Source: a virus | Taxonomy: Duplodnaviria; Caudoviricetes | Virus record (IMG/VR): IMGVR_UViG_3300030708_001462 | Location: 1-33,975 of that record | Strand: one strand, 5' to 3' | DNA: 33,975 nucleotides | In this document: one piece after another, positions 1-32,730 of the stretch | How the letters are laid out: every line of letters starts with the position of its first letter | Position numbering within the stretch: position 1 is the stretch's first letter | Translations under genes and position numbers: made by a program | Notes under the pieces: model-generated | What the model was told of the DNA's origin: nothing | The model's database searches: none | What the model saw: only the letters and a program-made list of their open reading frames with translations

Positions 1-60
1 GGACGATTATATCCGCTGCACAATGTGGAGCACCCCACCTCAGACGCAGGTGGTTTGCAG
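1..60. repeat. Left copy of 60-bp terminal direct repeat (circular assembly overlap)
   Basis: 1-60 is identical to 33916-33975 except C39 vs G33954. Two reading frames run through the junction. Confidence 0.95.
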
Positions 61-465
61 TCGCTTACCCAAGCACCATTGGATACTACGTGCGGAACGA
101 ACGTGCGTTTGCCGACACCATGCCACAGGGATTACAAAAACAATCCATTGACACCAAGTCGACAAACAGGCAAGCACAGCCGCTGCCTAAACACAGCAGT
201 GGGAGAGATGCTTCTACCAACACCACTTGCGACAGTGAACAACAACCCACACACACCGGCCGCATGGAACAGGGATGGAGACCCCAGCGTTCAATATGCG
301 AAGGCGTTCGGAATAACCAAAGAGGAGGCTATTGGGCAACGTTTCCAACTCAATCCCCCGTTTGTAGAAGAGATGATGGGATTCCCAATCGGGTACACCG
401 TCTTAAAGCCCTTGGAAACGCAGTCGTCCCACAGTGTGCAGAGTGGGTCGGACAACAAATCTTAA
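1..465 (+). CDS. Methyltransferase beta polypeptide in overlapping +1 frame, C-terminal part (continues from 33748)
   Basis: Has LPTPCHRDYK and LLPTP repeats and the motif IX-like LNPPFVEEMMGFPIGYT, which the alpha frame lacks. The joined ORF is about 210 aa. Confidence 0.75.
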   Translation, partial: GRLYPLHNVEHPTSDAGGLQSLTQAPLDTTCGTNVRLPTPCHRDYKNNPLTPSRQTGKHSRCLNTAVGEMLLPTPLATVNNNPHTPAAWNRDGDPSVQYAKAFGITKEEAIGQRFQLNPPFVEEMMGFPIGYTVLKPLETQSSHSVQSGSDNKS

Positions 466-506
466 AATCAGGACTATTGGAGGCAGTATGTTCGCAGCGC
501 AACTAA
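3..506 (+). CDS. C5 DNA cytosine methyltransferase, alpha polypeptide, C-terminal part (continues from 33489 across the junction)
   Basis: Frame 3 reads GAPHLRRRWFAV (motif VIII) and ends with RLKALGNAVVPQCAEWVG (motif X). It is in frame with 33489..33975; the joined protein is about 310 aa. Confidence 0.9.
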   Translation, partial: TIISAAQCGAPHLRRRWFAVAYPSTIGYYVRNERAFADTMPQGLQKQSIDTKSTNRQAQPLPKHSSGRDASTNTTCDSEQQPTHTGRMEQGWRPQRSICEGVRNNQRGGYWATFPTQSPVCRRDDGIPNRVHRLKALGNAVVPQCAEWVGQQILKSGLLEAVCSQRN

Positions 507-703
507 AAGAAACTTTATCAACTGTTAACAAATCTGAACTAGCACGTGCTATTGGATGTCACCGTGATACCATCGCCAAGTGGTTGTCAGGCAAGCAAGT
601 ACCGAACGTTAAGTATCTGATGCGCCTATGTGTCTACTTGTACCCTGAAGAGTGGGAGCGTGCCTTTTTACACTTTGGTGTGTTGATAGAGGCGGAAAAA
701 TGA
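488..703 (+). CDS. XRE/Cro-type helix-turn-helix regulator
   Basis: NKSELARAIGCHRDTIAKWLSGKQVP is a typical HTH. GGAGG precedes ATG 488. Confidence 0.85.
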   Translation: MFAAQLKETLSTVNKSELARAIGCHRDTIAKWLSGKQVPNVKYLMRLCVYLYPEEWERAFLHFGVLIEAEK

Positions 704-711
704 GTTATAGT
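683..711 (+). promoter_or_regulatory. sigma70-type promoter for the candidate small RNA
   Basis: TTGATA (683-688), 17-nt spacer, TATAGT (706-711). Confidence 0.65.
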
Positions 712-716
712 ATCCT

Positions 717-766
717 ACATGCTCCTGGCATGGTAGGTTTGGGTAGGTTTGGTCGCCTACCCTTTT
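717..766 (+). ncRNA. Candidate trans-acting small RNA (about 50 nt)
   Basis: Lies between a promoter and an intrinsic terminator. It has a 5' hairpin CATGC-TCCTG-GCATG and the seed TGGTAGGTTT, complementary to AACCTACC leaders elsewhere in the genome. Confidence 0.55.
741..766 (+). terminator. Intrinsic terminator
   Basis: GGGTAGG, 8-nt loop, CCTACCC, followed by TTTTCTGTT. Confidence 0.65.
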
Positions 767-784
767 CTGTTAGTGGTGGTGGTG

Positions 785-1081
785 ATGATTAAGGGATTCG
801 GTATCTGGCTCAATAAAGCAATGCACCGAAACTCAATCAGTACAACCTACATGGCTGATCGGGCAGGACTACATGTAAACACCATTAACAAGTACCTATC
901 TGGAGCGTATGAGCCACGCATGAGCAACCTCATTGTACTTGTCACTGTCATTGCCAACAAAGAGGAGCGCAGCCCTACACAACTAATGTTTGAGGCTATC
1001 ACATCATTAGATGAAATGAAGATGGTAGAGGCCAGGTGGCGTAAAAAAATCAAAAGGAGTTCAGAGGCTGGCCGGCCCTGA
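785..1081 (+). CDS. XRE-type helix-turn-helix regulator
   Basis: STTYMADRAGLHVNTINKYLSGAYEPRMSNL HTH pattern. Start placed at ATG 785. Confidence 0.85.
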   Translation: MIKGFGIWLNKAMHRNSISTTYMADRAGLHVNTINKYLSGAYEPRMSNLIVLVTVIANKEERSPTQLMFEAITSLDEMKMVEARWRKKIKRSSEAGRP

Positions 1082-1086
1082 ACTCC
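1044..1086 (-). terminator. Intrinsic terminator ending the late (minus-strand) block
   Basis: GGAGTTCAG (1056-1064) pairs with CTGAACTCC (1078-1086) and is followed on the minus strand by TTTTGATTTTTTT. It sits where the two transcription blocks converge. Confidence 0.7.
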
Positions 1087-1110
1087 AGTAGTGATTGGTG
1101 TTGTGTAAAC

Positions 1111-1287
1111 TTAACGTTGCTCTTCTCTTGTGTCAACGATTTCCTTTAGAACCTTGAACAACAGTTCAATGAGGTCTTCTGCCAACTCTTGGCGCTCTTC
1201 TTTGGTTAACCCACCACGACTATGCATAACAAGTTTTTTAATAAACAACACAAGTTCTGGTGTAAGTGCAAGTAAATCTTCGTTCAT
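1111..1287 (-). CDS. Small hypothetical protein (58 aa), not in ORF track
   Basis: MNEDLLALTPELVLFIKKLVMHSRGGLTKEERQELAEDLIELLFKVLKEIVDTREEQR. ATGA overlap with the upstream stop. Confidence 0.7.
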   Translation of the reverse strand: MNEDLLALTPELVLFIKKLVMHSRGGLTKEERQELAEDLIELLFKVLKEIVDTREEQR

Positions 1288-1637
1288 TTCTTTTTCCTTC
1301 TAACTGGGGTGACTCTTTTACCACGACCAACACTGCTTTTTTGTGCAACCTTGGAGCGATATTGGCTTTTGCTCATCTCTGAGCGTGTCCGTGGTGTTTT
1401 ACTACTAACACGTTTGGAGGGTCTGCAATAGGGTGTACCTTTTCTTTTTGAGCCACAGGGTTTGCCTGACTGGTCCTTCCACTTTTCCTTACCCCATCGT
1501 TTAAGAGATGCGCCCTTAGATGTCTTGCGTACCTGACCTTTCTTCTTGCGACACTTGGCAATCGCCTGTGATGCACGGGCTGATGGGAAAACTTTGTATC
1601 GGCTCTTGACCGAATGATAGCATGCGTCTTTACTCAT
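1284..1637 (-). CDS. Very basic phage protein (resembles DUF5872-type proteins)
   Basis: DACYHSVKSRYKVFPSARAS..KCRKK, LKRWGKEKW and YCRPSKRVSSKTP motifs recalled from aquatic phages; K/R-rich. Family name is from memory. Confidence 0.7.
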   Translation of the reverse strand: MSKDACYHSVKSRYKVFPSARASQAIAKCRKKKGQVRKTSKGASLKRWGKEKWKDQSGKPCGSKRKGTPYCRPSKRVSSKTPRTRSEMSKSQYRSKVAQKSSVGRGKRVTPVRRKKK

Positions 1638-1664
1638 ACGTATAAGTATACCTGAAGATGCAAG

Positions 1665-1949
1665 TTAACGCATGGATTTTTTACCACGACATTTCCATTT
1701 CTTGCGTGATAAGTTGTTGGGACTGTTGGGGTCGTTACGTTTCTTTGCTGACAGTCGCTTCTTAATCCCTGCACTGCGTGCGCAATAGGAATTTCCCTTC
1801 TTTGTCCCTGGTTGTATACGATCCGTGCCACTCTTCGACTTGCCTGCCTGCCCATAACTGACCTTTCTAGTGCGACCAGTCTTCTTATTTTTGACAACTT
1901 TGACAAATCGTTTACCACGTGCTGGAGTCCGTTTCTTTCTAGTTGGCAT
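1665..1949 (-). CDS. Very basic phage protein (resembles DUF6321-type proteins)
   Basis: SYCARSAGI..NDPNSPNNLSRKKWKC motif; K/R-rich. Family name is from memory. Confidence 0.7.
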   Translation of the reverse strand: MPTRKKRTPARGKRFVKVVKNKKTGRTRKVSYGQAGKSKSGTDRIQPGTKKGNSYCARSAGIKKRLSAKKRNDPNSPNNLSRKKWKCRGKKSMR

Positions 1950-2265
1950 TGTCCACCCTAATCAATGATGCTTTAATCTCACTAATCATTGTACTCAATG
2001 TTGTAACACTCTGCTCTAATAATGACATTCTTTTATCTAGGTCTGTCATCTCCTGCACAATAGTCTCTCTCATTGCCTCTTCTTTTTGCTGCATACCCTC
2101 AATGACAGTGTCATACCTGGCACGCAGTTCTGTCTCTTTTTGTTCTGCCTTTTCTTCACGTTCATCGGCACGACGTTGGAGGTCCTTGTTCTGAGTGTAC
2201 AGGAATACTGCAAACGCAACGTTTGCCCCACCACTCATCAACAGTTGCAAAACTTCGCCTTCCAT
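1939..2265 (-). CDS. Holin-like membrane protein (one TM segment plus coiled coil)
   Basis: GGAGG precedes ATG 2265. The hydrophobic N-terminus LLMSGGANVAFAVFLY is followed by a charged coiled coil. Confidence 0.55.
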   Translation of the reverse strand: MEGEVLQLLMSGGANVAFAVFLYTQNKDLQRRADEREEKAEQKETELRARYDTVIEGMQQKEEAMRETIVQEMTDLDKRMSLLEQSVTTLSTMISEIKASLIRVDNAN

Positions 2266-2283
2266 ATAACCTCCAATGGGAAA

Positions 2284-2307
2284 TGGAGTGCCCCGAAAGG
2301 CACTCCA
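2284..2307 (-). terminator. Stable hairpin after the fibre gene (terminator or processing/stability site)
   Basis: TGGAGTGCC / GGCACTCCA 9-bp stem with a weak U tract. Confidence 0.5.
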
Positions 2308-2321
2308 AACAATCAAACAAC

Positions 2322-3923
2322 TTACAATGAGAAGTACATTACAGTAATTTGGTCGCCTGAGTTGGGGGCCGCACCAAAAGTCACACGTAATACGCCGCCA
2401 CTTCCGCCAGTCGCAGACAATGTGTACTGGTCTTGTCCTGAAGGTGAAGACTCAACAAGACCCATCGCCAAACCGTTTCGGAATACGATAGCACCACCAA
2501 GCATGGTAGCGTCAGCAGCAGAGCCTGCGTCAAACGTTGTGGCAGAACCGTCACCAGCAGACAATGTTTCGTACGATGCCATGAAGTTCAACTTGGCAGC
2601 AGTCACATTTGCATCGGCAATCTTTACTGTCGTTACAGCATTTGATGCTAGGCGAGCAGAGTCTACTGCAGCGTCAGCAATCTTTGCTGCAGTCACAGCA
2701 TCATCAGCAATCTTAGCAGTCTCTACTGCATTTGAAGCAATCTTGGCTGCAGATACAGCATTTGAAGCCAACTGAGTTGCAGTGATACCACCAGAAGCAA
2801 CACTAAGACCACCTGCACCAAGAGCCAACGTACCACCGTCAAGAGATACAATGAGAGAGCCACTAGAGTTCTCAACACCGTTGCCCAAGGTGAGTTTGTC
2901 TGCGGTAATAGACCCCGCAAGTTTTGCAGTGGTCACAGCAGAGTCAGCAATCTTACCTGAAGTTATAGCATTGTCTGCAATCTTACCGCTTGTTACGGAT
3001 GAGTCTTGAAGGGCGGCTGTAGCAACAGAAGCGTCCGCTAACTTTGCTGCAGTTACAGCATCGTCTGCAATCATTAGTGTAGAGATACCACCAGTGGCAA
3101 CTTTAAGTCCGTTAGAACCTGTGGACAAACTTGAACCATCCAGGTTGATACTAGCACTTACAGCAGCAGAACCGTTGTATGTAGCACTTAGACTCAAACC
3201 ACCTGTTGCAGACGCTGTCAAACCATTTAAACTTGAACCAAGAGCAACACCACTAATAGTAGAGTTAGAAAGTTTAGAGTTCGAAATAGACCCGGCCAAC
3301 ATAGCATCGGTGATACCAGCGGCTTTTACACGCAAAGCGTCTGATGAAATCTCAATAGAAGAATCATCTACTTCAACGTCAAGTTGGTCACCAGTTTTAC
3401 TTAATGCTGCTCCAGCAGTAATGTTAGAAGCACCTGTGTACTGACTGAAAGTAAGGTCATTTGTACCAACAACATCAGCACCTTTGTTTGATGTACAAAC
3501 AAATCCCATCTCTCCATTGACAGTACCCTGCTCAATAAACATTGACGCACCAGCAGCATTACTACCAGTTGCCATGTCTGTTGAACGTGCCCAGGCATCA
3601 GCACTACAAATGTAGATACCGTTAGCCGACGACGAACTTTGGTTCTTGACCAAAACTCTGTCTCCAGCAGAAACCGATACACCGTCAATCGTTTGTGTTC
3701 CTGAGAGTGTAATGTTTGCTGTCGTAGCAACCTTACATGAATCTTTGGGGTCAAGACCTGCAGCAACTGAGTCTACGTAACCACGTGTAGCCAGGGCTTG
3801 TGTGTTTGTATCAGAACCAGTGTAACGTACCTGACCTGAGAATGAATAGTTGGACGACCCATCCAGTTTGGTTTGGTCAATCGCATTGTTTTTGATTTGT
3901 TCCTTGGAAACTTGAACTGCCAT
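2322..3923 (-). CDS. Fibre-like virion protein with 10-aa repeats
   Basis: Has a KDSCKVATTANITLSGTQTIDGV..GDRVLVKNQ..NGIY fibre domain and many (A/S)VTxAKIADx repeats; Gly/Ala/Ser-rich. Confidence 0.75.
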   Translation of the reverse strand: MAVQVSKEQIKNNAIDQTKLDGSSNYSFSGQVRYTGSDTNTQALATRGYVDSVAAGLDPKDSCKVATTANITLSGTQTIDGVSVSAGDRVLVKNQSSSSANGIYICSADAWARSTDMATGSNAAGASMFIEQGTVNGEMGFVCTSNKGADVVGTNDLTFSQYTGASNITAGAALSKTGDQLDVEVDDSSIEISSDALRVKAAGITDAMLAGSISNSKLSNSTISGVALGSSLNGLTASATGGLSLSATYNGSAAVSASINLDGSSLSTGSNGLKVATGGISTLMIADDAVTAAKLADASVATAALQDSSVTSGKIADNAITSGKIADSAVTTAKLAGSITADKLTLGNGVENSSGSLIVSLDGGTLALGAGGLSVASGGITATQLASNAVSAAKIASNAVETAKIADDAVTAAKIADAAVDSARLASNAVTTVKIADANVTAAKLNFMASYETLSAGDGSATTFDAGSAADATMLGGAIVFRNGLAMGLVESSPSGQDQYTLSATGGSGGVLRVTFGAAPNSGDQITVMYFSL

Positions 3924-26941: not shown

Positions 26942-26961
26942 AAAAGGCCTCTAGGTAGGTT

Positions 26962-26996
26962 AAAAAGGTGGTGCACTATGTCCCAATACACCACCT
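26962..26996 (-). terminator. Terminator-like hairpin immediately upstream of the terL RBS
   Basis: Minus strand reads AGGTGGTGTATTG-GGACA-TAGTGCACCACCT-TTTT. Confidence 0.55.
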
Positions 26997-27308
26997 CAGA
27001 ACATTCATATCGCAAGAACAAAGCGCCTTATACAAGATGTATTGAATAACACGCCTATACAAACAATACAGTAAAATACAAATGTATGCAAGGTTAAAAG
27101 ATGATAGCCACAAAAGCCCTATACCGGTTGACCTGTTATCTGGTATAGATTTACGGGGGTGTACATACTGTAACACAAAGGGATTTGTGTTCAATCGTAT
27201 GTAACCCACTCCAATCCATACTGGCGATAACATAGACCAAAAACAAATCGGATACAGTTCTTTGACATTGTTAAAATATTTAGAAGTAGCAGCCAACTAC
27301 CCACAGCC

Positions 27309-27512
27309 AACCCGCCTAACGATAAGTTTCGTTTGTTTCGTTTTGCGCTGTTCGGAGGTTTGGCGAAACACAATCTGGTTTCGGTGTTTCACCTTGCGCG
27401 TCCCGTGGGTTTGGCGAAACATGATTCTGTTGCGGTGTTGCGCTGTGAGTGATTCGGGGACTTGGCGAAACATCATTTCTGTTTTGGCGTTTCGGTTTCG
27501 TCTTGTTTCGAT
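27309..27512. repeat. Degenerate 51-bp tandem repeat (three units plus a partial one)
   Basis: TTGGCGAAACA at 27360, 27411 and 27462, each followed by a GTT(T/G)CGG/TGTTTC-like segment. Confidence 0.8.
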
Positions 27513-27842: not shown

Positions 27843-27875
27843 AAAAAACCAACACACTTTGACATGTGTTGGTTT
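27843..27875 (-). terminator. Intrinsic terminator of the leftward Gp88-like operon
   Basis: AAACCAACACA / TGTGTTGGTTT 11-bp stem with a T run on the minus strand. Confidence 0.65.
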
Positions 27876-27902
27876 CGTTTTGTTGTTGTTGTTGGGTCTG
27901 AG

Positions 27903-29108: not shown

Positions 29109-29163
29109 GATATTCCTCTAGGATGGTAGGTTGATTGCATGAATACATTGTATCCATAGTATT

Positions 29164-29191
29164 ATTATATAGATTTATTTCTACATGTCAA
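29164..29191 (-). promoter_or_regulatory. Leftward sigma70 promoter with operator-like box
   Basis: Minus strand TTGACA, 16-nt spacer, TATAAT. The spacer contains TAGATTTATTTCTA (29170-29183). Confidence 0.75.
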
Positions 29192-29486: not shown

Positions 29487-29515
29487 TTGACACTCTAGAT
29501 TTATTTCTATATACT
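29487..29515 (+). promoter_or_regulatory. Rightward early sigma70 promoter with operator-like box
   Basis: TTGACA, 17-nt spacer, TATACT, with a T-rich upstream element. The spacer contains TAGATTTATTTCTA (29496-29509). Confidence 0.85.
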
Positions 29516-29568
29516 GTATACAGATGGTTCAACTATCTACAAACCTATCAACCAATATGGAGTAAACC

Positions 29569-29838
29569 ATGACTATCTACGTGATTACCTATTTATACAG
29601 ACGCAACTACGGTGACCCCAGTTGTCAAGTATTCACCAACCTACACGAAGCCCAAGCATTTGCACTGGAGTTGCTACAAGAACTCAACGTAACTGATGAG
29701 GAGATTGCAGATGCAGAGCGTGGTTGTAATGGTCCGCTTTGGGACCGTGACCACTGGTGGCTGTACACCTCATCTAGACGCGAAGAGGACATCTACGTAT
29801 CATTTGAAACTAGAACCATCAACCTACCAACGGAGTAA
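29569..29838 (+). CDS. Early hypothetical protein
   Basis: GGAGTAAACC-ATG leader; first gene after the promoter. Confidence 0.8.
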   Translation: MTIYVITYLYRRNYGDPSCQVFTNLHEAQAFALELLQELNVTDEEIADAERGCNGPLWDRDHWWLYTSSRREEDIYVSFETRTINLPTE

Positions 29839-29841
29839 ACC

Positions 29842-30081
29842 ATGTACTACACCATACACTCTGACAAACTCAACTGCAATGTAGAATTTGACCTCGATGA
29901 AGGTGGCTATCTGTGGGTACGCATTGGCAACCAACCACGTCGACAAGCATGTTCATTCGCAGATCCGGAAAGTATCTGCATCTACATGTCATTTAGTAGA
30001 TATACCACTGAAGATGAGCGTGAACGTCAATTTCATTCGGAGTGCGACCGCTGGTATCGCTACTTCATCAAAAACCAATAA
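29842..30081 (+). CDS. Early hypothetical protein, paralog of 30359..30607
   Basis: GGAGTAAACC-ATG leader; shares MYYTxHS, DEGGYL, QAC and CDRWYR blocks. Confidence 0.85.
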   Translation: MYYTIHSDKLNCNVEFDLDEGGYLWVRIGNQPRRQACSFADPESICIYMSFSRYTTEDERERQFHSECDRWYRYFIKNQ

Positions 30082-30100
30082 CCTACCTCAGGAGTAGACC

Positions 30101-30355
30101 ATGCACACATACAGATACGACTTTTCCTATTACATGCACCACTCTGATGAGTACGACACCATTGCCAACTACATTTGGGAGATGGGGCGTGATGAACTTG
30201 AGTTCCAAGCAATCTATAATCACGAATGGAGTTTCGGTGAACTCAAATATAGAGCAGATGTAATCATTCATGACATTTGGGTCATCGACTATTCTACCAA
30301 AGACGGTGAGTTAAACGCACTCATTGAAGTAACCTACGAAATCACAAAGAGGTAA
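30101..30355 (+). CDS. Early acidic hypothetical protein
   Basis: GGAGTAGACC-ATG leader. Confidence 0.8.
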   Translation: MHTYRYDFSYYMHHSDEYDTIANYIWEMGRDELEFQAIYNHEWSFGELKYRADVIIHDIWVIDYSTKDGELNALIEVTYEITKR

Positions 30356-30358
30356 ACC

Positions 30359-30607
30359 ATGTACTACACTAAACACTCACGCAAACTCAGATGCGATGTA
30401 ACATTCTTTGTACCCGATGAAGGCGGCTATCTCTATGTGGAGATTGGAGACCGGCCACGTCAACAGGCATGTGATGGAGGCTATACAACTGGAGCGACTA
30501 TCTATGTTTTGTACATGCATGCCAGTGCTGGCAGTTTCAGACGTTATTTTCAACAAGTGTGCGACCGCTGGTATCGCTCATTCATCAAAGACCACACCGG
30601 TTACTAA
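30359..30607 (+). CDS. Early hypothetical protein, paralog of 29842..30081
   Basis: GAGGTAAACC-ATG leader; same conserved blocks. Confidence 0.85.
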   Translation: MYYTKHSRKLRCDVTFFVPDEGGYLYVEIGDRPRQQACDGGYTTGATIYVLYMHASAGSFRRYFQQVCDRWYRSFIKDHTGY

Positions 30608-30785: not shown

Positions 30786-30794
30786 AGGCCTATC

Positions 30795-31232
30795 ATGAAC
30801 AACAACCAACCAACCAACGGAGCACACCAAATGAGTGTATTCAAAAAACTACTTGACGTTCACGTATTCATTTCCAACAACCCCAACGACAAGACGATGC
30901 CACTGTATTTCAATCCACAGAATGGCAACGGCTACTACTACACTGAGATTGACAACAACGGTGAGACATGGAACTACTGTCCGGTCTGTGCATTGGATTG
31001 TCTCTCTATCATTGACAGCCCGTATGAGTGCCATGAGGTATCAGATGATAGCCAGTCTGTATGTTGTGACAACTGCCCACAGGTCATTGAGACAGGGAGC
31101 GTCAATGAGTATTACCAGCACGCAGGCACGTTCAGAATCCCATGTGATGGTTCTATGAAGGTGTTCCTAGATGTGATGTGTTGTTGGACGTACGATGTTA
31201 CCACAGTTGAGTATCTGGTAGGTGAGCAATGA
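30795..31232 (+). CDS. Cys-rich, probably zinc-binding hypothetical protein
   Basis: CPVC and CDNC pairs. An alternative start is ATG 30831, after GGAG. Confidence 0.7.
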   Translation: MNNNQPTNGAHQMSVFKKLLDVHVFISNNPNDKTMPLYFNPQNGNGYYYTEIDNNGETWNYCPVCALDCLSIIDSPYECHEVSDDSQSVCCDNCPQVIETGSVNEYYQHAGTFRIPCDGSMKVFLDVMCCWTYDVTTVEYLVGEQ

Positions 31233-31975: not shown

Positions 31976-32702
31976 TGCACACATGGTAAACATTGCACTA
32001 GATATGTTTGCAGCGACGTTCAACAAAAAAGAGGAATGGAAGGCTCAGGTGTACCCAGTGTGGGACGCAGGTCTGGAGCGGGTTAAGGACGTTCACCTTC
32101 ACAAGGCCGTGCTCAACGTATGCATGAAGAAACACCAGTACCCTCCAACTCTAGGACATGTCCTAGAGGAGGTCAGGGAGGTGATTCGTGAACTAGGCGG
32201 TACTGGTATGGAACTCAAGGAGTACAAGTTTTGCGATGACTGCGTGCAGCGTGAAGGCATCCGTGAGATTAGTGCGCACTTCATAATCCTGGCTGACAAA
32301 CGATTCAAGGTGCACCGGTGTGTAGCCAGATGCACCTGTGCTGGAGCGACCTCCAAGTACCCTCAGATGGGAGATTGGAATAGTCTGTACGTCAAGATGC
32401 AGCACGACGCCCGTATCACACTCAAGGTCTGGCACATGACTGATGGCAAACTGCCTGTGCTGACCATGAAACAACGTGAGCCACACCACTACGAACGTAT
32501 GCTGCGGGTTCAAAAGGAGCGTGCGCTCCAAGGCAAACCTAACCCATACATGGATGTGGCAAAAACTATGATTGACGGAAGGTACGTTCCGCCCGACGTA
32601 AACCCAATGCCGATGCCAGCAACCATTGACAAACCTACGACAATACACTACAATACTTTTCATGCAGAGACAGACATCGACCCCGATGACTGCATCTGGT
32701 AA
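31968..32702 (+). CDS. Putative helicase loader/inhibitor-like replication protein with Cys motifs
   Basis: GGAGG before ATG 31968. W..GL..V....LHKAV......YPPTLGHV pattern, then CDDC and RCTC. Confidence 0.5.
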   Translation: MANAHMVNIALDMFAATFNKKEEWKAQVYPVWDAGLERVKDVHLHKAVLNVCMKKHQYPPTLGHVLEEVREVIRELGGTGMELKEYKFCDDCVQREGIREISAHFIILADKRFKVHRCVARCTCAGATSKYPQMGDWNSLYVKMQHDARITLKVWHMTDGKLPVLTMKQREPHHYERMLRVQKERALQGKPNPYMDVAKTMIDGRYVPPDVNPMPMPATIDKPTTIHYNTFHAETDIDPDDCIW

Positions 32703-32730
32703 CCTACCACCAACAACACTGGAGTACACC

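Follow-up and report, generated by a model that had tools for sequence, protein, structure and literature searches.

What might be the role of a short promoter-to-terminator unit lodged between two helix-turn-helix (HTH) genes of a marine phage, and how does it relate to the complementary tags found in front of several genes of the same genome? The window considered here, i.e., the whole analysed stretch of 33,975 nucleotides, is a complete 34-kb phage record (IMGVR_UViG_3300030708_001462) with ends overlapping by 60 nt. Genes identified in the window were terL, those for the major head protein, an amidase, a GP88-family protein, a C5 methylase and a SWIM protein, and two XRE-type HTH genes. 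Sequencing runs matching positions 400-1400 were mostly marine metagenomes (among the 24 runs listed, none of which was an RNA data set). Judging by terL, the closest cultured phage showed 28.7% identity, none exceeding 29%, and terL relatives were absent from the GTDB genomes searched. Neither a tyrosine integrase nor a resolvase was found in any of five complete genomes, so that a role in dormancy, as suggested in an earlier, sequence-only reading of this DNA, or in lysogenic immunity is not supported.

The same reading had placed a promoter, about 50 nt of sequence and an intrinsic terminator between the two HTH genes, and all of these elements were indeed present (Table 1). The site TTGATA-17-TATAGT at 683-711 is the sole promoter-like site in positions 1-3000 of the window. 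A promoter-like site (scores 7-12) was found upstream of the unit in all 19 sources examined, lying in differing reading frames of HTH1. In the predicted fold of 717-766, a hairpin at the 5' end is joined to the terminator by an open linker of 8 nt, GUAGGUUU; the folding energy is -20.4 kcal/mol (z -2.7; none of 200 shuffles was as stable). The RNA structure envisaged initially needs correction in two respects: CUCCU lies just partly in the hairpin loop, and the seed begins with a UG that is paired in the predicted fold. Variants of the anti-Shine-Dalgarno (anti-SD) module, CUCCG and CUUCG, remain pairable with GGAG by G:U. An own promoter and an intrinsic terminator, which are hallmarks of trans-acting base-pairing sRNAs, are both present in the unit as sequence features; at the same time, 683-766 closes the early operon at its 3' end and serves HTH2 as 5' leader. 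The G/T-rich TGGTGGTGGTG stretch at 767-781, between the terminator and the HTH2 start, is kept in close and most distant relatives and is probably the RBS of HTH2. On the opposite strand, a strong hairpin with a U-rich tail at ~1055-1085 (z -4.5) would stop late transcription just before HTH2.

Table 1. Coordinates of the unit, the flanking HTH genes and the leader tags in the window
Feature	Position	Strand	Basis or remark
HTH1, XRE/Cro-type HTH protein, 71 aa	488..703	+	Pfam HTH_3 above cut-off; PHROG repressor matches; 3' end contains the -35 box
Predicted sigma70-type promoter TTGATA-17-TATAGT	683..711	+	Sequence scan
Predicted ~50-nt small RNA	717..766	+	5' end placed by promoter spacing; folding and conservation
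Putative anti-SD module AUGCUCCU	719..726	+	Predicted pairing with GGAGUA/GGAGCA of tagged leaders; cofold structures
Seed GCAUGGUAGGUU, complementary to leader tag	728..739	+	12 consecutive invariant columns in 18 sequences
Intrinsic terminator hairpin (741-762) and U tract	741..766	+	Stem 100% paired; 4/8 pairs changed on both sides
HTH2, XRE-type HTH protein, 99 aa	782..1081	+	Pfam/PHROG matches; G/T-rich RBS kept directly 3' of the terminator
Tag	26954..26961	-	Before terL (26941); variable among relatives
10-nt tag	29123..29132	-	Before GP88-family gene (29108); leftward promoter 29191-29164
Tag AAACCTATCA, one G:U	29541..29550	+	Before ORF 29569, first gene after promoter 29487-29515
Tag	29821..29829	+	Before ORF 29842
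Tag	30080..30087	+	Before ORF 30101; strongest predicted duplex, -15.5 kcal/mol
Near tag AACCTACG	30331..30338	+	Before ORF 30359
Tag AGGCCTATCATG between SD and AUG of ORF 30795	30786..30797	+	12-bp predicted duplex including G:U pairs
Near tag AACCAACC	30808..30815	+	Before in-frame ATG at 30831
Tag	32701..32709	+	Before ORF 32731, first gene after promoter 32626-32654

The octamer AACCTACC occurs in seven exact copies in the window, against 0.81 expected, and none of 100 shuffles reached seven. Two of these copies are complements inside the promoter-terminator unit. When both strands were counted, the five copies outside the locus turned out, as had been claimed, to lie in the sense orientation upstream of an RBS: all five are followed by GGAG/GAGG and ATG, compared with a background of 1.3% of positions. 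Besides, a motif-blind scan returned AACCTACC as the most leader-enriched 8-mer (p ~5e-9 before correction for 65,536 8-mers). The near matches reported before 29569, 30359 and 30831 were found as well, and two additions can be made to them. First, the AGGCCTATCATG site at 30786-30797 had escaped the earlier reading; relatives carry GGAGCCTACCATG there. Second, there is a third strong promoter, at 32626-32654, with the tagged gene 32731 under its control, so that the first gene after each of the three strong promoters (29487 and 32626 on the plus strand, 29191 on the minus strand) carries a tag. Of the first genes of the two early operons, both proposed as targets in the earlier reading, the rightward one has a near match alone. 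Tags are 8-9 nt long and usually located 2-19 nt upstream of the SD; the one before the GP88-family gene is on the strand opposite to the unit and could be reached in trans only.

Related phages show how far this pattern extends. Among 407 unique leader windows from class A relatives (defined below), the exact form CCTACCATG was found in 10 and a G:U form in 6, with one tag in the antisense orientation; most of the G:U-compatible variants belong to leaders that are orthologous to one another and thus cannot be counted as independent. As for terL, its status as a core target is not supported, just 13 of 31 related terL leaders carrying the tag (AACCTACC in 7, CCTACC in 13 of these 31 close relatives). 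Two further candidates were rejected. A near-tag in the spacer of the 32626 promoter, considered as an operator, is kept in just two of the five class A genomes showing this promoter; a leftward mini-ORF from a reversed leader has an SD-ATG spacing of 1 nt and a frame that is not conserved.

We collected 23 HTH2 loci, 22 of which had upstream sequence; all 22 of these close loci retained the promoter, the 5' hairpin region, the seed and the terminator. The seed CATGGTAGGTT was invariant in these 22 loci and in a further 30 of 30 close metagenome loci (out of 56 metagenome loci, 19 were left out as duplicates or truncated and 37 were used, 30 of them close). In an alignment of 18 distinct sequences, the seed shows 12 invariant columns in a row, whereas in HTH2 just 2 of 14 four-fold sites and 1 of 17 two-fold sites do not vary; constraint on the seed far exceeds that at synonymous sites of HTH2. 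Pairing in the terminator is likewise maintained, with a covariation score of 0.259 versus 0.102 in shuffles (0 of 500 as high). The 5' hairpin is 94% paired, showing one-sided changes only and no double-sided ones. Overall, the unit is a real, conserved element. An exact 22-mer scan of viral contigs gave no matches, and a 15-letter pattern matched at least 80 loci, 28 beside HTH2 and 52 without terminator context, the latter being taken as chance matches.

Relatives in which HTH2 is 34-54% identical have a promoter-short RNA-terminator unit at the same place. In these distant relatives the unit is kept, and the seed is switched (TGGTTGTT) together with the leader tag (AACAACCA). Two classes can be told apart: class A, with the seed UGGUAGGUU and the leader tag AACCTACCA, and class B, with the seed UGGUUGUU and the leader tag AACAACCA. 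The check for covariation of seed and leader motif thus had a positive outcome, both changing together between lineages. A class A covariance model strongly matched only the window and one relative (G001) and is thus unable to pick up class B units. AACAACCA was returned by the motif-blind scan as the top leader 8-mer in the class B genomes G006 and G007. Conversely, AACCTACC was found in leaders of none of the five B genomes, and AACAACCA in a single leader across 10 A sources. Leaders with an 8-nt perfect complement formed a block-diagonal pattern: for A units, each of six A genomes had 3-8 of them and each of five B genomes 0-3; for B units, the numbers were 0-8 in B genomes and 0-2 in A genomes. 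Mean best-five cofold energies of A units were -12.3 against A leaders and -7.4 against B leaders, those of B units being -9.1 and -7.0. The leader copies counted in this comparison were all in the sense orientation, 35 in class A and 20 in class B. The seed itself shifts among the 5' end, the linker and the terminator loop, staying mostly unpaired throughout.

Complementarity of the unit to its own leaders exceeded that of shuffles in 15 of 19 sources and was not significant in G001 (p 0.12), G002, G003 and G004. The conserved, accessible seed complementary to several translation-start regions is accordingly a trait of the unit except in G002-G004, where the unit as such is kept. In a genome-wide window scan, the unit ranked joint first in the window genome and outside the top five in G001-G005 (5 of 9 genomes). 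The class B seed is of low complexity (G/U), and other G/U-rich genome windows equal or beat the unit in leader matches. Class A forms one clade in the terL tree (support 100/97) and in a portal-like tree, so the seed switch counts as one event; with some two or three changes in the loops added, independent co-changes are few, about 3-4 in all. In G003 and G004, the leaders consist of long (AAC)n stretches, to which the short unit of 38 nt shows no detectable match, a possible loss of the tag-RNA system.

Comparison of the units also points to a second module. In class A, 32 of 35 tagged leaders use GGAG, and CUCC or CUUC is found near the 5' end of all 10 units. In G005, G007, G013 and G015, 14 of 17 tagged leaders have GAGGA, with UCCUC in the terminator loop of their units. 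Three loop types exist in class B, and each is the best or tied-best match to the SD and spacer of its own genome (mean match length 6.0-9.0 nt; the longest, 13 nt, in G007). As far as can be read from these alignments, the putative anti-SD module tracks the SD and spacer of each lineage.

When interaction energies of 717-766 were calculated across leaders with correction for accessibility, the tagged leaders held the top 8 of 28 ranks. In cofolding, 8 of the top 10 leaders were tagged, and 2 of 150 shuffles performed as well; the 5' arm lies over GGAG and the terminator stays intact in five of the seven structures printed. The G006 unit showed no binding in cofolding, its seed being located in a loop, which cofolding cannot model. 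Tagged leaders are largely unstructured and C/A-rich. Leftward genes are tagged in 8 of 11 genomes, so that action in trans by a diffusible RNA would be needed. Since a change of the tag from one phage lineage to another is matched by a change of its mirror, the unit likely encodes a small RNA, which would lower translation of the tagged genes together. More specifically, we consider it probable that the unit encodes a two-module, trans-acting sRNA of ~50 nt, predicted to repress early translation through the AACCTACCA tag and the adjoining SD. Its likely targets, predicted from complementarity, would be leaders of about eight early genes and, in some lineages, of terL. The initial idea of one trans-acting RNA for many leaders gains from the constraint on the seed, the covariation of the stem and the lineage-matched change of seed and anti-SD, and has to be trimmed with respect to terL.

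Such evidence allows us to propose the following scenario. The host sigma70 polymerase would transcribe the unit from phage entry on; most transcripts would end at 766, and some would read through into HTH2, which would be made from this read-through. The open linker of the RNA would nucleate on the unstructured C/A-rich leader, after which the weak 5' hairpin might open and UGCUCC might cover GGAG, blocking loading of the 30S subunit. Pairing would also mask a C/A-rich enhancer in a GcvB-like manner. As the RNA must build up, it would act with delay, and could serve as a delayed brake or a genome-copy counter on the early genes of a non-integrating phage. Repression (the sign of the effect) and its delay seem to be the most likely output.

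Several other interpretations deserve attention. Instead of giving rise to a free sRNA, the unit could be a cis-acting mRNA element, in which the 3' end of the early operon pairs back with its own leaders (icaR-like) or which works as a leader or attenuator of HTH2. The stretch from 29569 to the unit was found to lack a plus-strand terminator, and the unit could accordingly be where rightward early mRNAs end; in the read-through RNA, the 5' arm can pair with the HTH2 RBS, if weakly (z -1.6), and the unit persists in G003 and G004 despite the lack of leader matches. Against a cis element stand the promoter-like site of its own in 19 of 19 sources and the tagged genes on the opposite strand, observed in most genomes (see above), which are beyond its reach. 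We therefore regard a purely cis-acting element as unlikely.

The unit is flanked by two HTH genes, and one might suppose that HTH1 or HTH2 binds an asymmetric double-stranded DNA site, represses its own promoter and stalls polymerase at the tagged starts. Stoperators of phage L5 are asymmetric and oriented with transcription (PMC9283540), and a DNA site likewise predicts co-change of the locus and the leader copies, so covariation alone cannot decide between RNA and DNA. This trait of Cluster A stoperators, asymmetric sites along transcription, fits the leader copies but not the locus copy: the latter is antisense to its own transcript, whereas leader copies are sense-only, and the leftward terminator-like hairpin at the end of HTH2 would stop late transcripts before they reach it. 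The HTH recognition helices do not track the motif either. G001 has a different HTH2 helix and the same motif, another locus (L119) has near-identical HTH1 and HTH2 helices and another motif, and class B members share the seed while their HTH1 helices are unlike. In addition, a DNA site leaves unexplained both the separate anti-SD module in hairpin loops and the shifting of the seed among different parts of the unit. The variant of this idea raised in the sequence-only reading, an operator made of direct repeats, fails, since the second GGTAGGTTT copy is peculiar to the window genome (1 of 18 aligned sequences) and lost in relatives. Cluster A stoperators are, moreover, 13-bp sites bound by a two-domain repressor of ~183 aa, while here the motif is 8-9 nt and HTH1 and HTH2 have 71 and 99 aa, with a single HTH match each. 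Overall, operator function appears quite improbable to us.

It is also conceivable that the RNA pairs with the tags yet activates or processes the messages, e.g., by guiding a nuclease or a translation factor to them. Phage sRNAs can activate, as exemplified by IsrK (PMC4825925) and by PreS, which activates dnaN (bioRxiv 10.1101/2024.10.31.621285), and the order of promoter, short RNA, terminator and read-through gene resembles the isrK architecture. The predicted duplexes, however, extend over the SD or the stretch from SD to AUG, and leaders with so little structure offer hardly anything for an activating RNA to unmask; we give this possibility very little weight. Finally, the notion that the tags are mere C/A-rich translation enhancers, with a complement arising by chance or as a terminator-region relic, may be set aside as hardly credible: ACA motifs do enhance translation (PMC3879156), G/U-rich stretches easily match such leaders, and G003 and G004 combine (AAC)n leaders with a non-matching unit, but 12 invariant unpaired or weakly paired bases, a matched T/A class switch and loop-to-SD matching are not expected from a terminator alone.

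If the preferred reading, a trans-acting sRNA, is adopted, the unit can be compared with known RNAs. P4 CI and P1/P7 C4 RNAs are processed from the operon they control. Searched against Rfam, the window gave no matches at gathering score and the 600-900 region just two chance-level hits, with the GcvB and C4/P4 CI models unmatched. GcvB of enteric bacteria pairs with C/A-rich elements immediately upstream of the SD in several mRNAs (PMC3879156), and the phage unit resembles it in that one RNA would address several C/A-rich sites just 5' of the SD at variable spacing (PMC3879156). Unlike GcvB, the unit is ~50 nt long and phage-encoded, with predicted targets among the phage's own genes, a second anti-SD module and no sequence relation; its targets, furthermore, appear tagged to match the RNA. 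The unit shares with P4 CI and P1/P7 C4 the predicted action of a phage RNA in trans through short complementarity at more than one site (PMC4825925, PMC8201110). These RNAs act on one immunity operon, CI causing premature termination (PMC4825925, PMC8201110), whereas the unit has its own terminator, its predicted targets fall into three transcription units on both strands, and the phage is without integrase. Rather than flanking the RNA in its own operon, the tags stand before distant genes on both strands.

As in IsrK of Gifsy-1, one promoter would give both a short RNA that stops at the terminator and a longer, read-through mRNA encoding a regulator further downstream (PMC4825925); IsrK activates its own long isoform, while the predicted targets here are many distant leaders (PMC4825925). 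VpdS of VP882 and PreS of lambda are, likewise, multi-target phage-encoded sRNAs with a seed (PMC12197685; bioRxiv 10.1101/2024.10.31.621285). They are Hfq-dependent and largely act on host mRNAs, and the accessible portions of these sources describe no shared tag in phage leaders (PMC12197685; bioRxiv 10.1101/2024.10.31.621285); nor is a shared-tag self regulon described in the available parts of the phage sRNA review PMC12197685. Our own literature search, with most subscription journals outside its range, found no report on an RNA of this phage family or on the anti-SAS RNA discussed below.

A further analogy is offered by the start-associated sequences (SAS) of Cluster K mycobacteriophages. 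SAS are asymmetric repeats at the starts of non-structural genes, present in one orientation, with a role reported as unknown (PMC3203893, PMC11373665); four K1 phages have one reverse copy (PMC3203893). The marine phage tag shares these traits: it marks the starts of non-structural genes, has the same orientation at each of them and is present in reverse at one place elsewhere, as in Cluster K and Cluster EF Microbacterium phages (PMC3203893, PMC11373665, PMC7302621). SAS differ in being 13 bp long and including the SD, whereas the marine tag is 8-9 nt, separate from the SD and unrelated in sequence and phage group; the marine mirror comes with a promoter and a terminator of its own, that of K1 phages being part of a multi-hairpin stretch. 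In Anaya (L276:29795-29965, near the right genome end), we found one reverse SAS copy against 15 sense copies in the right half examined, and this reverse copy forms the 10-nt loop of a long hairpin in a non-coding gap. The anti-SAS hairpin stretch is matched by 135 mycobacteriophage records, some of which annotate a small hypothetical ORF over it. Among eight aligned phages, the loop core is identical in seven and variant in Amohnition, and 8 of 49 consensus pairs of the stretch change on both sides. No Rfam match to it was found at gathering score, and the right halves of Pixie and TM4 contained no anti-SAS copy within two mismatches. In Adephagia, the hairpin lies between genes 92 and 93, the gap in which late transcription appears to initiate (PMC11373665). 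We treat the anti-SAS hairpin as an analogy, not a proof, for the mechanism in the marine phage.

Keeping SAS in mind, it is tempting to suppose that phages write lineage-specific address tags into early leaders and silence the whole set with a mirror RNA, which would create RNA-coded exclusion groups among these non-integrating marine phages and explain SAS too; we hold this to be possible, if somewhat doubtful. With tag and RNA drifting in step, a resident phage would use its RNA to silence early genes of incoming kin and not those of other lineages. If the scenario is true, a 50-nt RNA and the leader tags that co-evolved with it let the phage control a whole regulon of its own after transcription, no protein regulator being involved. 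This would be a compact timer or exclusion device, as well as a ready-made orthogonal tag/RNA pair with at least two specificities. SAS have been unexplained since 2011, and the address-tag logic would, if true, account for those of Cluster K. Their role would be open to direct experiment with cultured K1 phages, which grow on M. smegmatis and have the mirror in the loop of a conserved hairpin.

Finally, we would like to comment on several further elements of this phage family. Immediately 5' of the terL RBS, at 26962-26997 on the minus strand, lies a hairpin that resembles a terminator, its conserved loop reading GGGAC and its stem being followed by a U run. It is present in 18 of 31 related terL leaders, with stems that vary yet stay paired, and might serve as a signal for antitermination, protein binding or packaging. 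In the gap between terL and the GP88-family gene, which is poor in genes, there are three tandem 51-nt repeats, 65-71% alike, at 27334-27486, as well as T/G-rich repeats and a two-way hairpin at 27845-27876; the gap could represent an origin or an end region. The two divergent early promoters share, in their spacers, an identical 14-bp quasi-palindrome (29170-29183 and 29496-29509), which is present in G008 too and absent from the G009 and G011 promoters shown; it is a candidate HTH operator. One 87-kb metagenome contig (L189-L191) with three HTH2 matches ~31 kb apart is probably a concatenated assembly. The small early genes 29842-30081 and 30359-30607 look like paralogues by eye, their N- and C-termini being alike, and early gene cassettes are reshuffled among relatives, with tagged leaders nonetheless kept.
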